DNA from: an uncultured Actinomycetota bacterium
GTDB taxonomy: Bacteria > Actinomycetota > Actinomycetes > Nanopelagicales > Nanopelagicaceae
Assembly: GCA_963844465.1 (NCBI GenBank)
Contig: CAWJOR010000011.1
Span: 11,128-75,127, forward strand
DNA length: 64,000 nucleotides
Direction of reading: 5' to 3'
The notes under the pieces were generated by a model. It did not search any database, had not been told where the DNA came from, and worked only from the letters and a program-made list of their open reading frames with translations. Positions 1-8,077 of this stretch are shown here, one piece after another. Numbering within the stretch: the first letter of the stretch is position 1; the number at the start of each line of letters is the position of its first letter. The position numbers were made by a program, and so were the translations under genes.

Positions 1-387
1 ATTTGCCAGAAATTGGGGTTCACCGGCGCCCTCGGTAGCCGCGCCGAAGTGAAAGATGGGATTTACACCGGCCAGATGATTGGAAATCTTCTGCATGGCA
101 AAGAGAAGGCAACGGCCATAAAGGAGCTTGCGGTCGAACGTGGCTTTGATCTCTCGGAGTGCTATGCCTATTCCGACAGCCATAACGACCTTCCGCTGCT
201 GATGGCTGTGGGCCATCCGAGCGCGATCAATCCGGACGCCGTCCTGCGTATCCGCGCCCTGCGAGAGTCCTGGCCGATTCACGACTTCCGCCGCGCTCAA
301 ACGCTCAACCGCGTGCTCGGTCCAGTAGCTAGTTGGATGGCTGCGCTGGGCGTGCTTCTGACGCCTCGACGAAATAAAGATAGGTAA
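1..387 (+). CDS. HAD-IB family hydrolase (SerB-like), C-terminal part; the 5' end lies outside the window
   Basis: The frame is open from nt 1 (track ORF 13..387). GKEKATAIKELA...YAYSDSHNDLPLL...INPD matches the C-terminal motifs of HAD-IB phosphatases. Confidence 0.7.
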   Translation: MCQKLGFTGALGSRAEVKDGIYTGQMIGNLLHGKEKATAIKELAVERGFDLSECYAYSDSHNDLPLLMAVGHPSAINPDAVLRIRALRESWPIHDFRRAQTLNRVLGPVASWMAALGVLLTPRRNKDR

Positions 388-423
388 ACACCGAAGCAGA
401 TCACCCGCTAATGTAGAGCGGTT

Positions 424-2619
424 ATGGAAACGCGCTCTTTTGCAGATTACCTTCGTGGGCTAGGCGACCCCGAACTACTCTCACTTTTTGCGCTCAGGCC
501 GGATTTGGTCTCACCCGTCCCTCATGACATTGCCTCGCTGGCAGTCCGTGCGAACTCTGCGCCGAGTCTTTCCCGCGCGGTTGAGCGTCTTAATGAGTGG
601 CAGTTTCAAGTTTTAGAAGCATGTGCCGCCCTTGATGAACCTATGAGCGAGAAAGAAATCGTTTCGGTAACTGATTCGTCCGCGAAGTTCGTCATTCCCC
701 ACCTGGCGAATATGGCACTGTTGTACAAATCCAAAGACGGTTACCGACTTCCAAATTCCCTTCGTGAAGTACTGGGAAATGAACCAGCCGGGTTAGGGCC
801 TGCTTCAATGGCCAAACTATCGATGAAGAAACTCGCTGAAGCACCAGAGGCAGCAAAGAAAGTTCTAGAGAAACTTACTTGGGGTCCTCCGCGCGGAAGC
901 GTCGGAGATATCCGCAATCCCGGACCCGGAATCGCATGGCTGCTTAAAGAGAATTTCCTTGTCCCACTTGATCAACGCACCGTCATTCTTCCGCGAAGCG
1001 TCGCGATCTATTTGCGAGGCGGCAAGATCCACAAACACCCCTCACCCAATCCTCCTGTGCTCACGGGGCGATCAATCCAGCAGAAGGTTTCTGATAGAGC
1101 AGCAATCGCCAACATCTCAACGATCTTGCGATGGTGCGAGGAGATTTTGAACTTCTGGTCGGAGGAGCCACCAAGTGCTCTCCGTGCCGGAGGTCTGGGA
1201 GTACGAGACCTAAAAGCTGCAGCACAGCATCTCGGGGTGGACGAAAGTTGCGCAGCATTCGTTGCTGAGCTTGTCTATTTGAGCGGTTTGGTTGTCCTGG
1301 AAGGAAACGATCAAGTTCTTCCAACGCACGCCTTTGACATCTGGCTGACGCAAAGCCCGCAGACACGCTGGCGCGCGATTGTTTCTCTCTGGCTAATTAC
1401 TTCGCGTGTAAGCGGATTGATCGGCCGAGCTGAATCGAAACACATCTCGGCCCTAGGTCCCGAACTCGATCGCGTCAACGCATCAAGTACCCGCCGGCTG
1501 ACCCTGGAAGTTCTCGCCCAACATCCCGAAATTTCCCCCGATGTTGAAGCGCTACTTGCGCTTATTAAATGGAGAGCACCGGCAAGGCGAAACCCCGGAT
1601 TCCAGAGCGACCTCGTCAGGTGGACCCTTCGAGAAGCCGAATGGCTGGGGATCACCGGACAGGGCGCAATGTCAAAGTACGGCCTTGCCTTCTTAAGCGG
1701 GCGCGAGGACTGTGAAATCGACTCGGACTTACCCAAGCCAATCGACCATATTCTTATTCAGAGCGACAACACCGCTATCGCCCCAGGTCGCCTAGAAATA
1801 GGTATAGCCCGCGTATTGGACTCCATTGCAGATATCGAAAGTCGTGGAGGCGCAACTGTCTACCGCTTCAGCGAAGCATCCATCCGACGAGGGTTGGACC
1901 ATGGCAAGACGGGTGAGGAGATAAAGGATTTTCTCCGTAAAACATCCAAAACACCGGTGCCGCAGCCTCTTGATTATCTAATTGGAGACGTTGCAAAACG
2001 TCACGGCCGACTCCGTGTCGGAAATACGAGCTCCTACCTTCGCTGCGAGGATCCCACACTTCTCACTCAGATAATCAGCGACAAAAAACTAGAGGGATTC
2101 CCACTCCGTCGAATCGCCTCCGAAGTCCTTGTCTGCGATCTTGACGCGAACGAATTCATGATCGCTCTTCGCGGCGCCGGATACATGCCAGCTGCAGAAT
2201 CGAGCACAGGCATCTTGATAACTGGACAGAAAGTGAATCGTGCCAAATCAAAACCCCGTCCACCTCGGGTGATTGGCGAAATAGAAACACCTTCTGAGGA
2301 ATCTCTAACCTCTGCCGTTCGCGCGCTTCGCGTCGCCGAACGTTCGAGCCACAAGCAAACCTCGCTTCGCGAGATCGCCGCCAACGCCCTCGGATCCCTT
2401 CCACGAACCACAGCCAACGAAACACTGGACTTGTTGCACAAATTCATTGTCGAAGGACAGACGCTCTCAATCGGATATGCAGACAACAACGGCTCGGTCA
2501 CTCATCGAATCATCGACCCACTTAGCATCAGCGCAGGCTCACTGATTGCGCGAGATCATGGAACAGGTGAAATCCAAACCTTCAGGATCCCTCGAATCAC
2601 CGGAGTTGCACCACTCTAA
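424..2619 (+). CDS. Helicase-associated protein, the conserved actinobacterial neighbour of XPB (Rv0862c-like)
   Basis: 731-aa uninterrupted ORF. The family assignment rests on size and on my memory of the XPB partner gene in mycobacteria. I recognised no catalytic motif. Confidence 0.5.
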   Translation: METRSFADYLRGLGDPELLSLFALRPDLVSPVPHDIASLAVRANSAPSLSRAVERLNEWQFQVLEACAALDEPMSEKEIVSVTDSSAKFVIPHLANMALLYKSKDGYRLPNSLREVLGNEPAGLGPASMAKLSMKKLAEAPEAAKKVLEKLTWGPPRGSVGDIRNPGPGIAWLLKENFLVPLDQRTVILPRSVAIYLRGGKIHKHPSPNPPVLTGRSIQQKVSDRAAIANISTILRWCEEILNFWSEEPPSALRAGGLGVRDLKAAAQHLGVDESCAAFVAELVYLSGLVVLEGNDQVLPTHAFDIWLTQSPQTRWRAIVSLWLITSRVSGLIGRAESKHISALGPELDRVNASSTRRLTLEVLAQHPEISPDVEALLALIKWRAPARRNPGFQSDLVRWTLREAEWLGITGQGAMSKYGLAFLSGREDCEIDSDLPKPIDHILIQSDNTAIAPGRLEIGIARVLDSIADIESRGGATVYRFSEASIRRGLDHGKTGEEIKDFLRKTSKTPVPQPLDYLIGDVAKRHGRLRVGNTSSYLRCEDPTLLTQIISDKKLEGFPLRRIASEVLVCDLDANEFMIALRGAGYMPAAESSTGILITGQKVNRAKSKPRPPRVIGEIETPSEESLTSAVRALRVAERSSHKQTSLREIAANALGSLPRTTANETLDLLHKFIVEGQTLSIGYADNNGSVTHRIIDPLSISAGSLIARDHGTGEIQTFRIPRITGVAPL

Positions 2620-2672
2620 GCGCCACAAAATGATGAACCCGGACACCCGATCCTGGACTAAGAACGAAATTA

Positions 2673-2699
2673 AGTATAGTTTAGTGCTTAAACTATACT
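2673..2699. promoter_or_regulatory. Perfect 11-bp inverted repeat (AGTATAGTTTA-N5-TAAACTATACT) upstream of fic; candidate operator
   Basis: The arms at 2673-2683 and 2689-2699 are exact reverse complements. The repeat lies in an AT-rich spacer, with a TAGAAT -10-like hexamer at 2712-2717 and the fic ATG at 2763. Confidence 0.4.
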
Positions 2700-2762
2700 A
2701 ATTGTCATCCATAGAATAGTTTAAATGCTAGCCTTTACTGCAAGTTGGCAGAGGGAGGGGTC

Positions 2763-3965
2763 ATGCGAGGCAAATTTGTACGCCGAACGTGGGAGTACAA
2801 CCCCGCTCATTACGCCCCTCCTGGCTATCGCCGAGCCTGCCACTACGAAGCCTTCATTCCAGATGACCTCGCCAACTTCGCTGAACCGCTGACGGGGGAA
2901 CTTGCAGGGGCGGTTTCTGAGGCTGAGACCGCCATACACCAACTGAATGCACGGGCACTTCCGGCGCTAGCGCCTTTGGCCCGGTTGCTTTTGCGCTCCG
3001 AATCAATCGCTTCTTCCAAAGTTGAGGGAATGCAGGTCGATTCGCGCGATCTGGCTCGAGCAGAAGCCAAACTCGAAACGGGCGGAAAGGCCGGTCCGAA
3101 CGCCCGGGAGATCCTCGCCAATATCGATGCGATGGAATTGGCAATCGACCATGCCACCATTGCGGAAACCATCACCGTAGAGAATATTGTCGATATCCAT
3201 CGGATCCTCTTGGCATCGGCGACCAATCACCATGTGGCTGGAGTGATTCGAAACGAACAGAATTGGATTGGTGGAAATGATTACAATCCTTGCGATGCCG
3301 ATTTCGTGCCGCCACCGCAAGAGGAAGTCTCACGGCTTCTTGCCGATCTTTGCAAAGCGATAAACGAAGATCACCTTCCACCAGTTGTTCAGGCAGGTTT
3401 AGTTCACGCGCAATTCGAAACGATCCATCCATTTCATGATGGCAACGGTCGAACAGGCCGAGCCCTCATACATGTCGTATTGAGGCGCCGTGGAATGACA
3501 CCTCAATACGTGCCGCCGATAAGCATTGTGCTCGCATCAAGCAAAGAACGTTATGTACGGGGTCTGTCGAATTTTAGAGAAGGCGATTTTACTGACTGGT
3601 TGACCACTTTCGCGGCGGCGGCGACGCAGTCAGCTAATCTAGCCAGCAGCTATCTGGGCGAAGTTGAGATGCTCCAGAAAGAATGGAGAGCGGCGCTGGG
3701 TGCGGCGGCAAATCCCCGAGCCGATGCCGCTGCTTGGAAGATTATTGAGGCACTGCCGGCTCACCCGATGATTACTGTGGCCGTTGCTGTAGTGATGGTG
3801 GGACGGACTAAAGCCGCGGTCAGTGAAGCAATGGCGCAACTTGAACTTGCAGGTGTCCTAATTCGTGAATCGCAAGGTCAGAGAAATAGAACATGGGAAG
3901 CCAGGGGACTTTTGAACCTTCTTAACGATCTTGAATCCGGGGTGATCCCAAAAAAACGAGGTTGA
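2763..3965 (+). CDS. Fic family protein (AMPylase-type, class II with an intramolecular inhibitory motif) and a C-terminal winged-helix-like tail
   Basis: Canonical Fic motif HPFHDGNGRTGRA. An N-terminal SSKVEG fits the [ST]xxxE[GN] inhibitory helix. The ATG at 2763 follows GAGGGAGGGG, so the track start at 2745 looks over-extended. Confidence 0.85.
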   Translation: MRGKFVRRTWEYNPAHYAPPGYRRACHYEAFIPDDLANFAEPLTGELAGAVSEAETAIHQLNARALPALAPLARLLLRSESIASSKVEGMQVDSRDLARAEAKLETGGKAGPNAREILANIDAMELAIDHATIAETITVENIVDIHRILLASATNHHVAGVIRNEQNWIGGNDYNPCDADFVPPPQEEVSRLLADLCKAINEDHLPPVVQAGLVHAQFETIHPFHDGNGRTGRALIHVVLRRRGMTPQYVPPISIVLASSKERYVRGLSNFREGDFTDWLTTFAAAATQSANLASSYLGEVEMLQKEWRAALGAAANPRADAAAWKIIEALPAHPMITVAVAVVMVGRTKAAVSEAMAQLELAGVLIRESQGQRNRTWEARGLLNLLNDLESGVIPKKRG

Positions 3966-4129
3966 AGATTTATATTGCACAGAGAGCCTTTATGATCCCA
4001 TTGCTTCCAAATCAAAATAAGAGGGAGGCTGATTTGGAGATGAGGTCACACACAAGCCGGGTTGCCGATGCACGTCGCATATTCAAATCAAACACTCACG
4101 GAAAATAACTACTCCTGTAGCATCCCCTG

Positions 4130-4816
4130 ATGATAACAATCGGATTACTTGGCGACCGGAATCCATCTTTCATAACTCATCAAGCAATTGATAGGGCGCT
4201 CGATCTTTTCAATAATCGTGGTCAGAATGTAGAGGCCGCCTGGTTAGGGACCAAGCATGTTTCATTACACGAACTCATAGCAGTTGAGGGCCTTTGGGTG
4301 CTTCCTGGAACACCGTATGAAAATGAGGAAATTGTCTTTGAGGCCTTGAGTATGCGACGCGAGGAGAATCGTCCAACTCTCGGTACGTGCGGTGGGTTTC
4401 AACATATGGTTTTGGAATTTGCGCGGAATAAGGTGGGGCTCCAGAGCGCCTCCCATGAAGAGACCGCAGGTGACGGCGGGCCCCTAGTTATTAGTTCTCT
4501 GCCATGTAGTTTGGTGGGCGAAGAACGATTGGTCCATTGTGTATCCGGAACAAGAATGGCTCAGATTTGTGGAAGCGAACCGTTTGTGGGATTCCACTAC
4601 TGCAACTATGGGGTCAACCCCGACTATCAAGCGGCGCTAGAGAAAGCCGGCTTGCGTCTGTCTGCCTTTGCTGAGGATGCCGGTATCGAGGCCATAGAGT
4701 TGAACGCCCACCCTTTCTATATGGGGACTTTGTTCCAACCACAAATGGGGCTACTTCAGGGATTTGGACTGCATCCACTGATTGAAAGCTTTTTGAACGT
4801 CGCCCAAACGGCGTAG
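4130..4816 (+). CDS. Stand-alone CTP-synthase C-terminal-domain-like class I glutamine amidotransferase homologue; His/Glu of the catalytic triad are replaced
   Basis: GTCGGFQ nucleophile elbow, FHYCNYGVN, and HPFYMGTLFQPQ where CTP synthases have HPxFxxxQFHPE. Confidence 0.6.
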   Translation: MITIGLLGDRNPSFITHQAIDRALDLFNNRGQNVEAAWLGTKHVSLHELIAVEGLWVLPGTPYENEEIVFEALSMRREENRPTLGTCGGFQHMVLEFARNKVGLQSASHEETAGDGGPLVISSLPCSLVGEERLVHCVSGTRMAQICGSEPFVGFHYCNYGVNPDYQAALEKAGLRLSAFAEDAGIEAIELNAHPFYMGTLFQPQMGLLQGFGLHPLIESFLNVAQTA

Positions 4817-4883
4817 TCGATTCCCTGCCACCTGCATGCCGAATGAATTCGACGCAAAGTTGCTTCGGTTTTGGAAATGATCG

Positions 4884-4918
4884 CAGGGATTGTATTAACG
4901 ATTGGCGGGATTGCCGAG
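4884..4918 (+). repeat. Intergenic island repeat, copy 1 (CAGGGATTGTATTAACGATTGGCGGGATTGCCGAG)
   Basis: Shares the 24-nt core TTG[TC]ATTAACGATT[GA]G[TC]GGG[GA]TTG with copies at 6586, 7425 and 7937. It lies 68 nt after the stop of the GATase-like gene. Confidence 0.8.
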
Positions 4919-5042
4919 TTCTGTTGAGTAACCTTCGCGGGCCAGACCGCACATAGCAAGATGCGGGTCGCGAATAGGCGTTCAGACCGCCATATTAGCG
5001 ATATTCATTCTGGAAAAATTCCAACCAAAGGATTCAGCAGCA

Positions 5043-5714
5043 ATGCATATAAAAAGCGAACCTTCGATTTTGTATTTTGGAACCCCTGTTATTCTCATTA
5101 GCACTCTCAACGAAGATGGCACCTCCAATCTTGCACCTATGTCATCGGCATTTTGGCTTGGTTGGCGCTGCATACTTGGTTTATCTGCTAAATCGAAAAC
5201 TACACAGAACATGATTCGTACCGGTGCGTGTGTACTGAATTTGCCATCTGTAGAGGAAGTTGCTGCTGTTAATTGTCTGGCAAGGACGACGGGTTCCAAT
5301 CCCGTTCCTGAATCTAAGACGCTCAAAGGATACCGGTATGAATCCGACAAGTTTGGTATTGCTGGATTGACGCCGATAGCATCGGAAACAGTCGCGGCAC
5401 CACGAGTGCAAGAATGCCCCGTGCAACTTGAAGCAGTCGTCGAAGCTACACACGGGATCGCTGAAGATGACTTGAGGCAGCGTGGACATCTCGTTTGTAT
5501 TGAGGTGCGTATCCAGCGTGTGCATGTTGAAGAGTCAATATTGATGAGCGGAGAACCTAACCGGATTGATCCGAACAAGTGGCGTCCACTTATCATGAGC
5601 TTTCAAGAGTTCTATGGGCTTGGGCCACAGTTGCAAGCTTCAACACTGGCGCAAATCTCAGAGTCCTTGTATCGAAGCCCGGATGTTGACCGGGCCCGTA
5701 ATGTGAAAGAATAA
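5043..5714 (+). CDS. Flavin reductase family protein (FMN-binding split-barrel)
   Basis: 223-aa ORF. Its length and overall sequence resemble flavin reductase-like domain proteins. The call is by recognition only. Confidence 0.55.
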   Translation: MHIKSEPSILYFGTPVILISTLNEDGTSNLAPMSSAFWLGWRCILGLSAKSKTTQNMIRTGACVLNLPSVEEVAAVNCLARTTGSNPVPESKTLKGYRYESDKFGIAGLTPIASETVAAPRVQECPVQLEAVVEATHGIAEDDLRQRGHLVCIEVRIQRVHVEESILMSGEPNRIDPNKWRPLIMSFQEFYGLGPQLQASTLAQISESLYRSPDVDRARNVKE

Positions 5715-5717
5715 TTT

Positions 5718-6572
5718 ATGGCGCAGAATGTTTCGAGTATCCAAAAATCAGATTATGACCGCATCGCCGAAGCAATTTCTTTCATTACCAGCCGAGTAAA
5801 TGATCAGCCGACATTAGAAGAGATAGCGGGGCACTTGCACTTAAGTCCCTTTCACTTCCAACGCCTATTCTGTCGCTGGGCCGGCGTGACGCCGAAAAGA
5901 TATTTGCAAGTACTTACTCTGGAGCGGGCCAAGCAATTGCTGAGCGAATCGAAATCCGTGCTCGAAGTTTCAGACTCCCTGGGGTTGAGCAGTGGTTCGC
6001 GCTTATACGATCACTTCGTCCAATTGGAAGCTGTTACTCCCGGAGAATTCAAGATGAGAGGAACGGGTGTAACCATCGAATATGCCATACAGGACACCCC
6101 TTTTGGGAAGGCGTTTCTTGCCACTACTCCCAGAGGAATTTGTAGTTTTGCATTTCTTGAGAACACAGAAATTAATGAGCATTTGTCTGATCTACACAAG
6201 AAGTGGCCACATGCGATTTTGCATGAAAATCAACAATCAACGCTTGCTGTGATTCAGGCAATGTTCGGAGAAGGGCGGGTATTAAGTCGTCCAATATCTT
6301 TGCACGTTTCTGGTACTAATTTTCAGATCAATGTGTGGAGAGCGTTATTACAGATACCTCCGGCGACAGTGGTGAGTTACTCTCAAGTGGCAAGCGCAAT
6401 TGGCCATCCGAAGTCCGCGAGAGCCGTGGGCCTTGCCGTTGGTAACAACCCTGTTGCATTTCTTATCCCTTGCCATCGCGTGATTCAACAAAGTGGCCAG
6501 ATTGGTGGTTATTACTGGGGCGAGACGCGAAAGCAAGCAATTCATGCATGGGAATCTGCCAGGCATGAATAG
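5718..6572 (+). CDS. AraC-type HTH fused to methylated-DNA-protein-cysteine methyltransferase (Ada/Ogt-like)
   Basis: The N-terminal LSPFHFQRLFCRWAGVTPKRYLQ is an AraC HTH. The C-terminal domain has the PCHRV active site (IPCHRVIQ). It starts 3 nt after the flavin reductase gene. Confidence 0.85.
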   Translation: MAQNVSSIQKSDYDRIAEAISFITSRVNDQPTLEEIAGHLHLSPFHFQRLFCRWAGVTPKRYLQVLTLERAKQLLSESKSVLEVSDSLGLSSGSRLYDHFVQLEAVTPGEFKMRGTGVTIEYAIQDTPFGKAFLATTPRGICSFAFLENTEINEHLSDLHKKWPHAILHENQQSTLAVIQAMFGEGRVLSRPISLHVSGTNFQINVWRALLQIPPATVVSYSQVASAIGHPKSARAVGLAVGNNPVAFLIPCHRVIQQSGQIGGYYWGETRKQAIHAWESARHE

Positions 6573-6580
6573 CCCTTACC

Positions 6581-6614
6581 CAGGGTTGTATTAACGATTG
6601 GTGGGGTTGGCGGA
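6581..6614 (+). repeat. Intergenic island repeat, copy 2 (CAGGGTTGTATTAACGATTGGTGGGGTTGGCGGA)
   Basis: Same core and orientation as copies 1, 3 and 4. It begins 9 nt after the AraC-MGMT stop codon. Confidence 0.8.
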
Positions 6615-6620
6615 TTTGAT

Positions 6621-6657
6621 CGTTCATGCTCTAGCGTTCATGTTTGTTCATGAACAA
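6621..6657. promoter_or_regulatory. Three GTTCATG half-sites ending in a perfect 14-bp palindrome TTGTTCATGAACAA; candidate operator for the PNPOx-family gene
   Basis: CGTTCATG occurs at 6621-6628 and 6635-6642. The palindrome is at 6644-6657, 43 nt upstream of the ORF start at 6700. Confidence 0.4.
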
Positions 6658-6699
6658 TGATCTTCCAAGATTCCCCGATAAGTTGAGTCCGACCAAATC

Positions 6700-7293
6700 G
6701 TGGGATGCTTGATCGCCGTCTCACATCTCGCTGATATAGTCGATTACGTGGGACAGGTTCACGAGCGCATCGACGGCAGACTCCGCGAGTTCATCGAGGC
6801 GCAGCACATCTACTTCGTGGGCACGGCGCCGCTAGAGGCTGACGGCCACATTAACCTCTCTCCGAAGGGGCATCGAGATACGTTCGCGGTACTGAACGAG
6901 CACACCGTTGCCTACCTCGACCTCACGGGAAGCGGAGTCGAATCGCTCGCGCACATCCGGCAGAACGGTCGCGTCGTCGTTATGTTCTGCGCGTTCGAAG
7001 GGCCGCCGAACATCGTGCGACTGCACGGCAAGGGCACGGTTCATACGCAAGGCGACGAGAACTTCGACGAACTCGCGGGGTTATTTCCGTCACGGCCGGG
7101 TGCCCGAGCCGTGGTGATCGTCGACGTGTCGCGTGTCAGCAGTTCCTGCGGCTTCGCCGTGCCGTCCTTCGACCACGTTGGCGACCGGGACTTGCTGGAG
7201 AAGTGGACCGAACGTAAAACCGATGAAGAACTCGCCAACTACCGAGCGACGAAGAACAAAACAAGCATTGACGGGTTACCTGCCCTGGACTGA
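6700..7293 (+). CDS. Pyridoxamine 5'-phosphate oxidase family (FMN/F420-binding split-barrel) protein
   Basis: 197-aa ORF with a GTG start in the track. The sequence has PNPOx-like character (HINLSPKG...VVVMF). It is visibly more GC-rich than neighbouring genes. Confidence 0.55.
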   Translation: MGCLIAVSHLADIVDYVGQVHERIDGRLREFIEAQHIYFVGTAPLEADGHINLSPKGHRDTFAVLNEHTVAYLDLTGSGVESLAHIRQNGRVVVMFCAFEGPPNIVRLHGKGTVHTQGDENFDELAGLFPSRPGARAVVIVDVSRVSSSCGFAVPSFDHVGDRDLLEKWTERKTDEELANYRATKNKTSIDGLPALD

Positions 7294-7316
7294 TGAGATA
7301 GACCGCCCAGTCATCG

Positions 7317-7351
7317 CTTCAAAATTTCGGGACATTTGAAGGGCCTTTTTT
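7317..7351 (+). terminator. Weak rho-independent terminator-like hairpin after the PNPOx-family gene
   Basis: CTTCAAA (7317-7323) pairs with TTTGAAG (7335-7341), followed by GGCCTTTTTT. The stem is short and AT-rich. Confidence 0.3.
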
Positions 7352-7419
7352 GGTCTGCCAGTGCGGTCATAACCTGTCAACGGCATATGCACGCCCTCGA
7401 GATGTTGGTTGAGAGTTAG

Positions 7420-7453
7420 AGAAGATGCATTAACGATTAGTGGGGTTGCCCGA
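7420..7453 (+). repeat. Intergenic island repeat, copy 3 (AGAAGATGCATTAACGATTAGTGGGGTTGCCCGA)
   Basis: Same core and orientation. It lies between the PNPOx stop (7293) and the stop of the minus-strand VOC gene (7464). Confidence 0.75.
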
Positions 7454-7463
7454 TAACGCTGCT

Positions 7464-7856
7464 CTATTTTGGTTGTAGAAATTCGAGACGATTGCCGAAC
7501 GGATCCTCAGAGTAGAAGCGATGGAATCCGGGAAAGTTATCATCCCATGTGACCGGGACACCATGCTTTTGAAGATGTTCGGCGAATGAAGCGAGGTCAC
7601 TTACGAGGATGCCTGGGTGTGCCTTTCGTATAGGAGAAAAGTCCTTGCCAACTCCGAGGTGGACTTCCAATCCACCGCCTCGGAACCAGCAACCGCCACG
7701 TGCTGCAAGTACTGGCGGTTTTCCGAGTTCAACCATGCCAAGGATTGTTCCCCAAAAGTTGCGGCATTGTTCCTCACTGCCAATGGGAATAGTCAAATTA
7801 ATATGATGCAGACCTTTGAAACCGAAGGGCAAATCATTCATCATGGGTTGAATCAT
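7464..7856 (-). CDS. VOC (glyoxalase/bleomycin-resistance/dioxygenase) family protein
   Basis: FKGLHHINLTIP...HLGV...HPGILV...GNRLEF is a typical VOC fold pattern. I place the start at the ATG at 7856 (MIQPMMNDL); the track start at 7979 would run through repeat copy 4. Confidence 0.65.
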   Translation of the reverse strand: MIQPMMNDLPFGFKGLHHINLTIPIGSEEQCRNFWGTILGMVELGKPPVLAARGGCWFRGGGLEVHLGVGKDFSPIRKAHPGILVSDLASFAEHLQKHGVPVTWDDNFPGFHRFYSEDPFGNRLEFLQPK

Positions 7857-7930
7857 GTCATCACCGACTTCACTGACATTCGGTGCCTCGCCGCAAACGT
7901 TGGTCAGAGTTCGACAGGGTAATGACAGAT

Positions 7931-7965
7931 ATGGGGTTGCATTAACGATTGGTGGGGTTGACCAA
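7931..7965 (+). repeat. Intergenic island repeat, copy 4 (ATGGGGTTGCATTAACGATTGGTGGGGTTGACCAA)
   Basis: Same core and orientation. It lies upstream of the VOC start and about 120 nt from the 3' end of the tRNA-like gene. Confidence 0.8.
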
Positions 7966-7986
7966 GGTTCTGTACACACAAATCGA

Positions 7987-8014
7987 AAGGGCTTCGAGTT
8001 TCCCCGAAGCCCTT
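7987..8014 (-). terminator. GC-rich 10-bp hairpin downstream of the tRNA-like gene (minus-strand sense)
   Basis: AAGGGCTTCG (7987-7996) pairs with CGAAGCCCTT (8005-8014). On the minus strand the hairpin is followed by TCGATTTGTGTG. Confidence 0.45.
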
Positions 8015-8077
8015 GCTCAACTCTCCTGACTTCTTGATCGGTGCCAATAGATCAGTCAAGAGAACTTGAGGCTACGG

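Follow-up and report, generated by a model that had tools for sequence, protein, structure and literature searches.

In integrons, gene cassettes meet at attC sites, structure-defined imperfect inverted repeats (R''-L''/L'-R') that fold as single strands. GNAT, NUDIX, VOC and toxin–antitoxin genes are the familiar cargo of chromosomal integrons, and integron arrays without an adjacent integrase (CALINs) exist. Islands of the tycheposon type are marked by a repeat that is a fragment of a tRNA gene, and tycheposons carry their own integrases. Other modules have no recombinase and are shuffled in trans at short conserved sites: the pdif modules of Acinetobacter plasmids, whose 28-bp XerC/XerD sites have palindromic arms and alternate in orientation, and the staphylococcal cassette chromosome (SCC) and pseudo-SCC elements of staphylococci, SCC being much larger and using the rlmH site and Ccr serine recombinases. 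Here we describe a ~41-bp asymmetric junction site from a 64,000-nucleotide stretch of an uncultured member of the Nanopelagicaceae (GenBank assembly GCA_963844465.1, contig CAWJOR010000011.1, positions 11,128 to 75,127; hereafter the window). The site is conserved and polar, is co-oriented within arrays, and lies between compact units that move as site-bounded blocks. We consider it likely that it delimits exchangeable cassettes in hypervariable arrays of Nanopelagicaceae-like bacteria, as part of an integron-like system whose recombinase would act in trans.

Nanopelagicales are the most abundant freshwater bacterioplankton. Additive tRNA-linked islands have been described in streamlined aquatic bacteria, with small cassettes added at hot spots and exchange between genera (PMC7771536; PMC12817590; bioRxiv 2026.04.03.716425), and much of the strain-level diversity in the Nanopelagicales lies in additive islands "flanked by tRNAs" (PMC12817590). 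The island papers give no mechanism, and one says that the integration mechanism is still to be identified (PMC12817590; bioRxiv 2026.04.03.716425); the word "integrase" is absent from PMC12817590. We found the sequence of the site in none of the papers searched.

The arrays described below resemble integron arrays in their co-oriented, compact and mostly single-gene units, in having a site at every junction, and in the exchange of units between arrays. The cargo is also alike (GNAT, VOC, NUDIX, toxin–antitoxins), and the upstream cassette seems to hold most of the site and crossover to take place at the distal edge. The differences are that the present site is defined by its sequence and is unfolded, that cassette genes lie on either strand and must therefore carry their own promoters, and that the anchor is a non-coding RNA module; neither IntI nor an attI/Pc platform was found beside the arrays, where the flanks seen are housekeeping genes. 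Like tRNA-linked or tycheposon-type islands (Prochlorococcus, Actinomarinales, Planktophila GI2-4), the arrays are hypervariable, additive and next to a tRNA or tRNA-like gene. Unlike in those islands, the repeat is no tRNA fragment and occurs on both sides of an atypical "tRNA", at distances of 110 nt and ~200–260 nt, and no integrase was found inside the island next to the tRNA-like gene in the window or the array loci scanned. With pdif and SCC the arrays share small recombinase-less modules bounded by short conserved sites, but the site resembles neither. On our best reading, the system is a cassette array or additive island of known general type that lacks the defining features of integron, tRNA-targeting and dif-like systems, and the site itself is undescribed. 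As a dif-like site it was rejected, having no palindromic inner arm and no similarity to the predicted actinobacterial dif CACGCCGATAATGCACATTATGTCAAGT (PMC3025954).

A polar junction site between exchangeable units

The initial annotation had reported four same-strand copies of a short motif in the window, and the count is well beyond chance: dinucleotide shuffles predict 0.12 copies of ATTAACGATTRGYGGGRTTG, and none of 100 shuffles reached four. The pattern ATTAACGATTNGNGGGNTTG occurs four times on the + strand, starting at 4894, 6590, 7429 and 7941, and a profile built from 42 instances found no copies in the 64-kb window besides this cluster. Copy 1 (4884–4924, +; core ATTAACGATTGGCGGGATTG at 4894–4913; profile E=1.5e-9) lies between a unit encoding a glutamine-amidotransferase (GATase)-like protein and a flavin-reductase unit. 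Homology to L010 stops there and homology to L005 begins (L numbers denote loci retrieved from other genomes and metagenomes). Copy 2 (6580–6620, +; core 6590–6609; E=1.9e-9) lies 11 nt past the stop codon of an AraC-MGMT gene, and the L005 homology stops at 6609. Copy 3 (7419–7459, +; core 7429–7448; E=2.9e-9) separates a PNPOx-family unit from the 3′ end of a VOC gene, and copy 4 (7930–7971, +; core 7941–7960; E=1.8e-10) separates the VOC unit from a non-coding RNA unit, 116 nt from the 3′ end of a tRNA-like gene. All four copies are intergenic, as had been proposed, once the VOC start is placed at its most likely ATG, at 7856; the mechanical open reading frame (ORF) at 7464–7979, which overlaps copy 4, is an artefact.

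The window copies are similar to one another over ~27–34 nt, and the sequence beyond cannot be aligned. In a profile of 163 copies, counted from the A of ATTAACGATT, the conserved span covers −10 to +23 and is followed by a lone T at +30, which gives a ~41-bp consensus, aWGGGGKTGY-ATTAACGATT-RGYGGGRTTG-sCsR-n6-T. Some positions of the site logo are invariant; changes are mostly transitions and are tolerated at only three to four positions. T(+30) is present in three of the four window copies (at 4924 in copy 1), copy 3 having C. The site is asymmetric: the same strand is G-rich at both ends, so the half-repeats GGGKTG and GGGRTTG, ~21 bp apart, are direct and not inverted. The lack of dyad symmetry noted at the outset was borne out by DNA folding of 80-nt segments around the four copies on both strands, which gave no hairpin or dyad (z −1.3 to +1.5). 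No −10 or −35 element is conserved at a fixed distance around the site in the 163-copy profile, and no Rfam family matches it, the only family found being tRNA (whole window at gathering thresholds; 7400–8600 at E<=1).

An exact scan of species-representative genomes for ATTAACGATTRGYGGGRTTG returned 35 loci, nearly all from freshwater Actinomycetota, and a metagenome scan with the exact pattern added 26; by our estimate, ~9 matches to the pattern are expected by chance. The assemblies are labelled Nanopelagicaceae, Planktophila, "Actinomycetes" or "uncultured Bifidobacterium", the last probably a mislabel. Several exact-match loci occur per assembly, often with clustered copies; a complete 2.1-Mb chromosome has one such locus and a 2.16-Mb contig three. 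By profile (E<=0.05) we counted 169 copies in ~60 loci of Nanopelagicaceae-like freshwater Actinomycetota, and all 169 share the strand of the best copy in their own locus, with none opposite. At least two copies are present in 43 loci and at least four in 15, spaced 0.07–2.2 kb apart within arrays; the L055 array has at least 12 (12 at E<=0.05 in 7.2 kb). The matches in L001 (Piscirickettsiaceae) and L013 (Tenericutes) were treated as chance, being single, inside ORFs and in genomes of other composition. A phage attP origin was rejected because the sole viral-contig match (L036) falls within an AT-rich phage ORF and is due to chance. Three site pairs are only ~70 nt apart (L033 1594/1666, L042 1292/1365, L055 5601/5671) and may be empty units left after cassette loss.

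The unit between successive copies has a median length of 728 bp and usually contains one ORF of 100–300 aa. Cassette ORFs run with the motif in 56 cases and opposite to it in 51, and the motif stands at gene 5′ and 3′ ends alike. Pfam searches with representatives of 58 cassette families, of which the 25 commonest of 70 matched Pfam families were listed, identified GNAT (eight), NUDIX (three), HAD hydrolases, AAA_33/zeta-like kinases, HepT/MNT and PIN/Rv0623 toxin–antitoxin pairs, VOC, SnoaL and DUF4440. The genes flanking the arrays are, by eye, housekeeping genes (msiK, trpS, corC, groEL, ffh, dapD). An msiK RNA motif (Rfam RF01747, 61 bits) at 2975–3034 (−) of L020, 5′ of the msiK ABC ATPase gene that flanks several arrays, confirms the actinobacterial core context.

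That the units move as blocks is seen in all-vs-all blastn comparisons, which revealed dozens of motif-to-motif homologies between different arrays with differing neighbours. A 256-aa Abi-like unit, for example, has four different following neighbours in L030, L052, L055 and L062. Of 655 distinct internal alignment ends, 241 fall within 15 nt of a site, where 25 are expected (p~1e-162), about ten times chance. The window itself is a mosaic. Positions 1–2618 match L014 (core gene), 2650–2860 match the L004 segment directly after the last motif of L004, and 3165–4068 match L003 (Fic). The match of 4059–4180 to L029 starts inside an L029 motif half; 4181–4909 match L010 (GATase-like unit, 88%) and 4891–6609 match L005 (flavin reductase and AraC-MGMT, 84%). 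Finally, 7926–8157 match L011, L017, L019, L020, L021 and L025 at 75–80%, and all six keep the arrangement of copy 4, spacer and tRNA-like gene. Units of the window thus recur elsewhere beside the same motif with other neighbours, the flavin reductase–AraC-MGMT pair in L005 and the GATase-like unit in L010. With the content turnover at the locus and the clustering of breakpoints, this supports the original proposal of a cassette array or serial insertion.

Among relatives, too, the repeats enclose different gene contents. The interval between the 731-aa core gene and the M20 peptidase gene that flank the island was recovered in seven configurations, all different (window, L014, L064, L065, L066/L067, L068, L069), with a flanking protein 89–97% identical; Pfam annotation covered the 12 same-locus regions L064–L075. 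The window island holds Fic, GATase-like, flavin reductase and AraC-MGMT, PNPOx and VOC genes and the RNA module. L064 (731-aa protein 97% identical) has Fic, DUF2268, a 170-aa protein, GNAT, a 187-aa protein and NUDIX, and L065 (95%) has NUDIX only. In L014 (94%) the RNA module comes first and cassettes follow, and L066/L067 (92%) are empty, with the core genes 38 nt apart. L068 (89%) has GNAT and ArsR with AHSA1, and L069–L075 (89%) have MNT-HepT and YoeB. In a search for strains with flanking proteins of the same sequence, we found no record for the exact M20 protein, and for the exact 731-aa protein none but the source contig and a single identical short contig.

The closest relative shows where exchange begins and ends. 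The window and L064 share 91.6% nucleotide identity over 1–4070, ending at the right edge of a relic site; past 4070, ~3.9 kb are unshared and L064 has other cassettes instead. Identity is 74% over 7929–8088 (copy 4 to the start of the tRNA-like gene), 8088–8377 is absent from L064, and identity returns at 91% from 8377. L064 has lost the tRNA-like and small-RNA genes, keeps relic edges and retains intact sites. Blocks of units are replaced between close relatives with end points at sites, and the sites keep a fixed polarity to the RNA module. At the outer junctions of the island we observed GCGCC at 2620–2624 (left) and GCACC at ~8470–8474 (right), and the empty L066 locus has a single GCGCC (11955–11959); these could be a target duplication or microhomology from insertion or deletion of the whole island.

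Units of the window island and the RNA module

The left flanking core gene (424–2619, +; 731 aa; Pfam Helicase_C_3 and WYL) has orthologues 66–100% identical that are labelled Nanopelagicaceae or Planktophila. It is followed by a Fic/DOC unit (2620–4039, +; gene ~2763–3965; Pfam Fic, Fic_N) common to L064, L003 and L004. The left edge of this unit adjoins the stop codon of the 731-aa gene and has no recognisable site; in L004 a full motif copy precedes the unit. Nested inverted repeats of 26–28 nt at 2658–2739, rich in TATAGTTTA/TAAACTATA and just 5′ of the Fic gene, probably serve its cassette as operator or promoter. A degenerate fifth copy had been proposed at 3922–3945, inside the 3′ end of the Fic gene, but that segment has no profile match at E<10 and no homology breakpoint. 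What we observed instead is a decayed relic at 4040–4068 (+; ATGAGGTCACACACAAGCCGGGTTGCCGA; ATGAGGT...GGGTTGCCGA), at the Fic/GATase-like boundary, which aligns to the consensus; the corresponding position of L029 holds a motif half, and the matches to L003 and L064 stop there, at 4068 and 4070 respectively.

The GATase-like unit (4069–4883, +; gene 4130–4816) has a weak Pfam GATase match (class I) and is 88% identical to L010 1–729, where a motif copy also follows it. The two-gene unit (4918–6582, +) encodes a flavin reductase (5043–5714) and an AraC-MGMT fusion (5718–6572), identified by Pfam, and is 84% identical, motif to motif, to L005 4053–5777, in a different context. Two cassettes in L005 (5743–6842; 119/138 aa and 143 aa) have a site between them and are fused in L010 (3329–4366), with 18 nt between them, so cassettes can merge into multi-gene units on site loss; such a loss may explain the two-gene unit of the window. 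The PNPOx-family unit (6615–7419, +; gene 6700–7293; Pfam PNPOx_N) has no homologue among the retrieved loci. The VOC/glyoxalase unit (7454–7929, −; gene 7464–7856) has a weak Pfam Glyoxalase match. These Pfam results confirm the gene functions first assigned by translation. Visible differences in GC content between units, also asserted then, hold for the PNPOx unit (0.57); the other units are alike (0.48–0.52). On the right, a relic palindrome GTTACTCGGAGTAAC (8377–8390) and a decayed distal junction site together occupy 8377–8440, by the alignment of 21 units, and form the island edge; this region is conserved in L064 and L032. The right flanking core gene (8503–9579, +) encodes an M20 peptidase by Pfam, with an XPB helicase gene next.

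The tRNA-like gene that the initial annotation placed near copy 4 is real (8076–8149, −; ARAGORN; Rfam tRNA 45.9 bits), but its anticodon loop, UUAGCCAA, has 8 nt, and it belongs to a special non-coding module between motif copies. ARAGORN finds 22 such genes, called Ala or Val, in the window, L003, L011, L014, L017, L019–L021, L025, L028, L032, L035, L043, L044, L050, L052, L059, L061 and L062, and all 22 lie on the strand opposite the motif. The cloverleaf has D and T arms (Rfam tRNA 39–46 bits), with compensatory changes in 11 of 20 pairs (RNAalifold, 17 members). In place of the canonical 7-nt anticodon loop with U33 and a purine at 37, 21 genes have 9 nt, UU(U/C)-N-R-CCAA, and the Rfam alignments show two extra loop nucleotides. 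The G3:U70 pair expected of tRNA-Ala is absent from the acceptor stems inspected (L014, L019 and window), and the T arm and UU..GCCAA loop presumably resemble those of tRNA-Gly(GCC). The "tRNAs" reported to border additive islands in these lineages may be tRNA-like genes of this kind.

The position of the gene between its two sites is nearly fixed: of 15 genes with an upstream site (beyond the 3′ end of the gene), 13 have it at 109–116 nt, and of 17 with a downstream site, 15 have it at 184–202 nt (Ala-type) or 252–261 nt (Val-type). When 21 units are aligned, conservation extends over the entire interval from one site to the other. Read in the tRNA sense, this interval has first a 15-bp palindrome, GTTACTCCGAGTAAC, and a −10-like TGnCATAnT; next come a short transcript with its intrinsic terminator and a further promoter-like region; the tRNA-like gene follows, and after it a trailer hairpin (TGATC-TATTGGYAY-GATCA) and a strong terminator. 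The module may stand at either end of an array or in its interior, and many arrays have none within the retrieved sequence (e.g. L055, L023). The palindrome, a perfect 15-bp repeat GTTACTCGGAGTAAC in L003, L004, L017, L019, L028, L035 and others, lies ~20 nt from the distal site and overlaps the presumed small-RNA promoter; it looks like an operator for a DNA-binding protein.

In the window, the putative small RNA (8232–8353, −) has a −10-like box TGTCAGAAT at 8359–8367, a seed at 8267–8285 and a terminator hairpin within 8232–8271, and a putative small RNA with −10-like box and terminator also lies 5′ of the tRNA-like gene in 20 other units. The window seed can pair with the 3′ terminus of the tRNA-like gene, 8267–8283 forming a 17-nt inverted repeat with 8076–8092 (16/17, 94%). 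Val-type seeds (UGGAGUUGCCGA-like) pair with the 3′-terminal 12–17 nt of the tRNA-like RNA, including the added A76 position; this helix covaries across 10 units (12 pairs, 99% paired, 5 compensatory), was matched by no shuffle and resembles a primer-binding site. Ala-type seeds pair over 13–17 nt with the segment from anticodon loop to T stem. The trailer (7972–8075, −) contains a hairpin at 8035–8054, whose loop UAUUGGCA is complementary to the anticodon loop, and an intrinsic terminator at 7986–8014. Between the trailer loop UUGGY (UAUUGGYA) and the anticodon-loop RCCAA (window 8112–8120, −), the covarying pair is GC in 10 units and AU in 7, with no mismatch, which suggests a loop–loop contact or a shared third partner.

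GATTGGYG is found in the junction-site core on the + strand, in Ala-type small-RNA seeds and in the trailer loop. The idea that the motif is a tRNA fragment or a copy of the anticodon arm was rejected: only 5–10 nt are shared around RCCAAUC, and the profile does not match the tRNA-like genes. Nor did we see, in the window, guide-like covariation of site variants with the adjacent tRNA-like loop. Far from the island (53 kb), window 61449–63143 (+) encodes the C-terminal domain of a phosphatidylglycerol lysyltransferase (MprF/LysX-like), an aminoacyl-tRNA-dependent enzyme; this protein is a conceivable consumer of a non-translational tRNA-like RNA.

Several arrays contain defence or toxin-type genes, by Pfam HepT/MNT, PIN, zeta-like and YoeB, and by eye a DUF4062-like gene (L040 4332–5372, −) and the AbiD/F-like gene of the 256-aa unit in L030, L052, L055 and L062, as cassettes or at array edges. 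The arrays may double as small defence islands.

Proposed crossover zone and rival explanations

When homologous cassettes in different contexts are compared, identity exceeds background from +21/22 at left ends and drops from ~−7 at right ends. In high-identity pairs (L023/L042, L049/L055, L011/L057), identity of the upstream cassette often reaches +18 to +21, and rare +19 variants move with the downstream cassette (L023/L055, L055/L060). The decayed site after Fic is common to the window, L003 and L064 up to TTGCCGA, with divergence beyond. Judged from these alignments, the crossover would fall between ~+17 and +21, a range that mapping of variable positions narrows no further and that has exceptions, and most of the site would belong to the upstream cassette. 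Site decay is also patterned. In L014 the proximal site is decayed, the module adjoins the 731-aa gene and cassettes lie on the 5′ side of the module; in the window and L032 the distal site is decayed, the module adjoins the M20 gene and cassettes lie on the 3′ side. If sites are imported with each cassette, internal sites would stay intact and terminal ones decay.

In the mechanism we propose, each cassette would carry most of the site at its right end, and a recombinase acting in trans would exchange, insert or excise cassettes between two site copies, with crossover at ~+17 to +21, near the 3′ edge of the site, a process comparable to attC × attC or attC × attI recombination in integrons. 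The primary sites would be those that flank the non-coding module; arrays could grow from either flank, and unused terminal sites would decay. In the window, cassettes would have accumulated on the 3′ side of the module, and the distal (~8400–8440), Fic-side and 4040–4068 sites would have decayed.

Several observations weigh against this mechanism. We detected no recombinase, transposase or reverse-transcriptase domain in the window (Pfam, all ORFs >=180 aa), and the initial annotation had likewise noted that a recombinase was missing; beside the arrays we saw none in ORF maps and all-vs-all clusters of 62 loci, in ~30 array-flanking proteins judged by eye and not by profile, or in the Pfam annotation of L064–L075; and none is among the 25 cargo families listed of the 70 matched. 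Transposases were seen only in L004 (IS30-like, by eye) and L069 (IS3-type), kilobases from the arrays in both cases, and they are not recurrent. Since no enzyme was found, we infer rather than observe that the recombination is site-specific. No excised circle or empty junction was directly observed. Variable positions within the site show only weak linkage to the cassette on either side, and internal site positions differ, several at a time, in some high-identity pairs, which leaves room for crossovers at varying points through homologous recombination within the site. The L068 island has no recognisable copy and the L069 island has one. The island is identical in all 24 contigs sharing one flanking protein (one clonal population), so cassette turnover is not fast. 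Finally, the site lacks the dyad symmetry of most tyrosine and serine recombinase core sites. There is a precedent in the shufflon, whose tyrosine recombinase Rci acts on asymmetric sfx sites with one conserved arm, so the missing symmetry does not exclude site-specific recombination; in the shufflon, though, the sfx sites face each other in inverted orientation and the outcome is inversion inside a single gene, not the capture of cassettes.

The main rival explanation, which we regard as improbable, is that the motif is kept for another reason, as a protein-binding or insulating element, and that swaps arise by RecA-dependent recombination between these short identities, for instance when foreign DNA has been taken up, so that no dedicated recombinase is required. 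It would account for the missing recombinase, for switch points inside the motif that vary among high-identity pairs, for the poor linkage of variable positions to either neighbour, and for the multi-cassette replacement between the window and L064, which is expected from a double crossover; the literature on these lineages likewise describes tRNA-flanked additive islands, with no integrase named in PMC12817590. On the other side, ~30 bp of identity barely suffices for RecA to recombine efficiently. Selection for evolvability is weak and of second order, and it leaves unexplained the invariant positions across genomes whose core genes share just 70–80% identity. Terminal copies decay while those between cassettes stay intact, which fits imported rather than in-place-maintained sites, and neither strict co-orientation nor fixed polarity to the tRNA-like module is required by homologous recombination.

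An attractive but still less probable alternative is RNA-assisted capture, in which the RNAs of the module guide a recombinase or the tRNA-like RNA primes reverse transcription from the small RNA. The position of the module between two site copies in one polarity (22/22) is in its favour, as are the identity of the site core GATTGGYG with the Ala-type seed and the trailer loop, the resemblance of its complement to the anticodon loop RCCAAUC, and the primer-binding-site-like pairing of the Val-type seed UGGAG... with the tRNA-like 3′ end. However, the sequence shared between site and RNA is only 5–9 nt, and the profile does not match the RNAs. Site variants do not follow the neighbouring tRNA-like loop either: T occupies position 12 in three of the four window sites, although the loop there is GCC-type. 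No module is visible in the retrieved sequence of many arrays (L055, L023), L064 keeps intact sites despite the deletion of its tRNA-like and small-RNA genes, and no reverse transcriptase or IS110-like gene was seen in the scanned proteins.

That the site is an operator or promoter of a detoxification or stress regulon, with an incidental cassette layout, was an alternative raised at the outset and is very improbable. The window units do encode plausible stress enzymes (flavin reductase, Ada-like AraC-MGMT, PNPOx, VOC), and a regulator that binds in tandem could use the direct half-repeats with their 21-bp spacing. But the motif orientation is constant while genes run either way (56 versus 51) with the site at their 5′ or 3′ ends, no −10/−35 is conserved around it, homology breakpoints fall on it, and the cargo is unrelated in function (toxin–antitoxins, Abi-like proteins, kinases, membrane proteins, an RNA gene). 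A known repeat class, whether a genome-wide element of the repetitive extragenic palindrome (REP) or miniature inverted-repeat transposable element (MITE) type, the former also suggested initially, or a degenerate attC or Xer/dif-type site, is hardly credible: the motif is short, intergenic and repeated and its cargo is integron-like, but copies are few per genome and clustered (four in 64 kb; one and three exact-match loci on the 2.1-Mb chromosome and the 2.16-Mb contig), they form no palindrome, hairpin or dyad and do not resemble CACGCCGATAATGCACATTATGTCAAGT, and no IntI-like gene lies beside the arrays.

Significance for freshwater Actinomycetota

Cassette arrays often break assemblies in metagenome-assembled genomes; with the motif profile they can be annotated there by a simple marker. 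A defined site at the cassette junctions, together with its proposed crossover zone and an RNA module of fixed polarity, opens the origin of the islands to experiment. Integrons are reported to be absent from Actinomycetota (IntegronFinder survey); if confirmed, the system would be a case of integron-like capture in a phylum thought to be integron-free, at a site without the attC hairpin. A broader proposal, which we hold to be improbable, is that freshwater Actinomycetota possess a gene-capture system of their own, with a sequence-defined, non-hairpin site of ~41 bp and, instead of an integrase gene plus attI, an RNA locus as its platform (the tRNA-like RNA with a 9-nt anticodon loop, the matching antisense small RNA and a kissing trailer hairpin), in which the RNAs would serve as guide, primer or cofactor, and that this is the mechanism behind the "tRNA-bounded" additive islands. 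If the RNA module does prove to be part of the machinery, the system would be categorically new.

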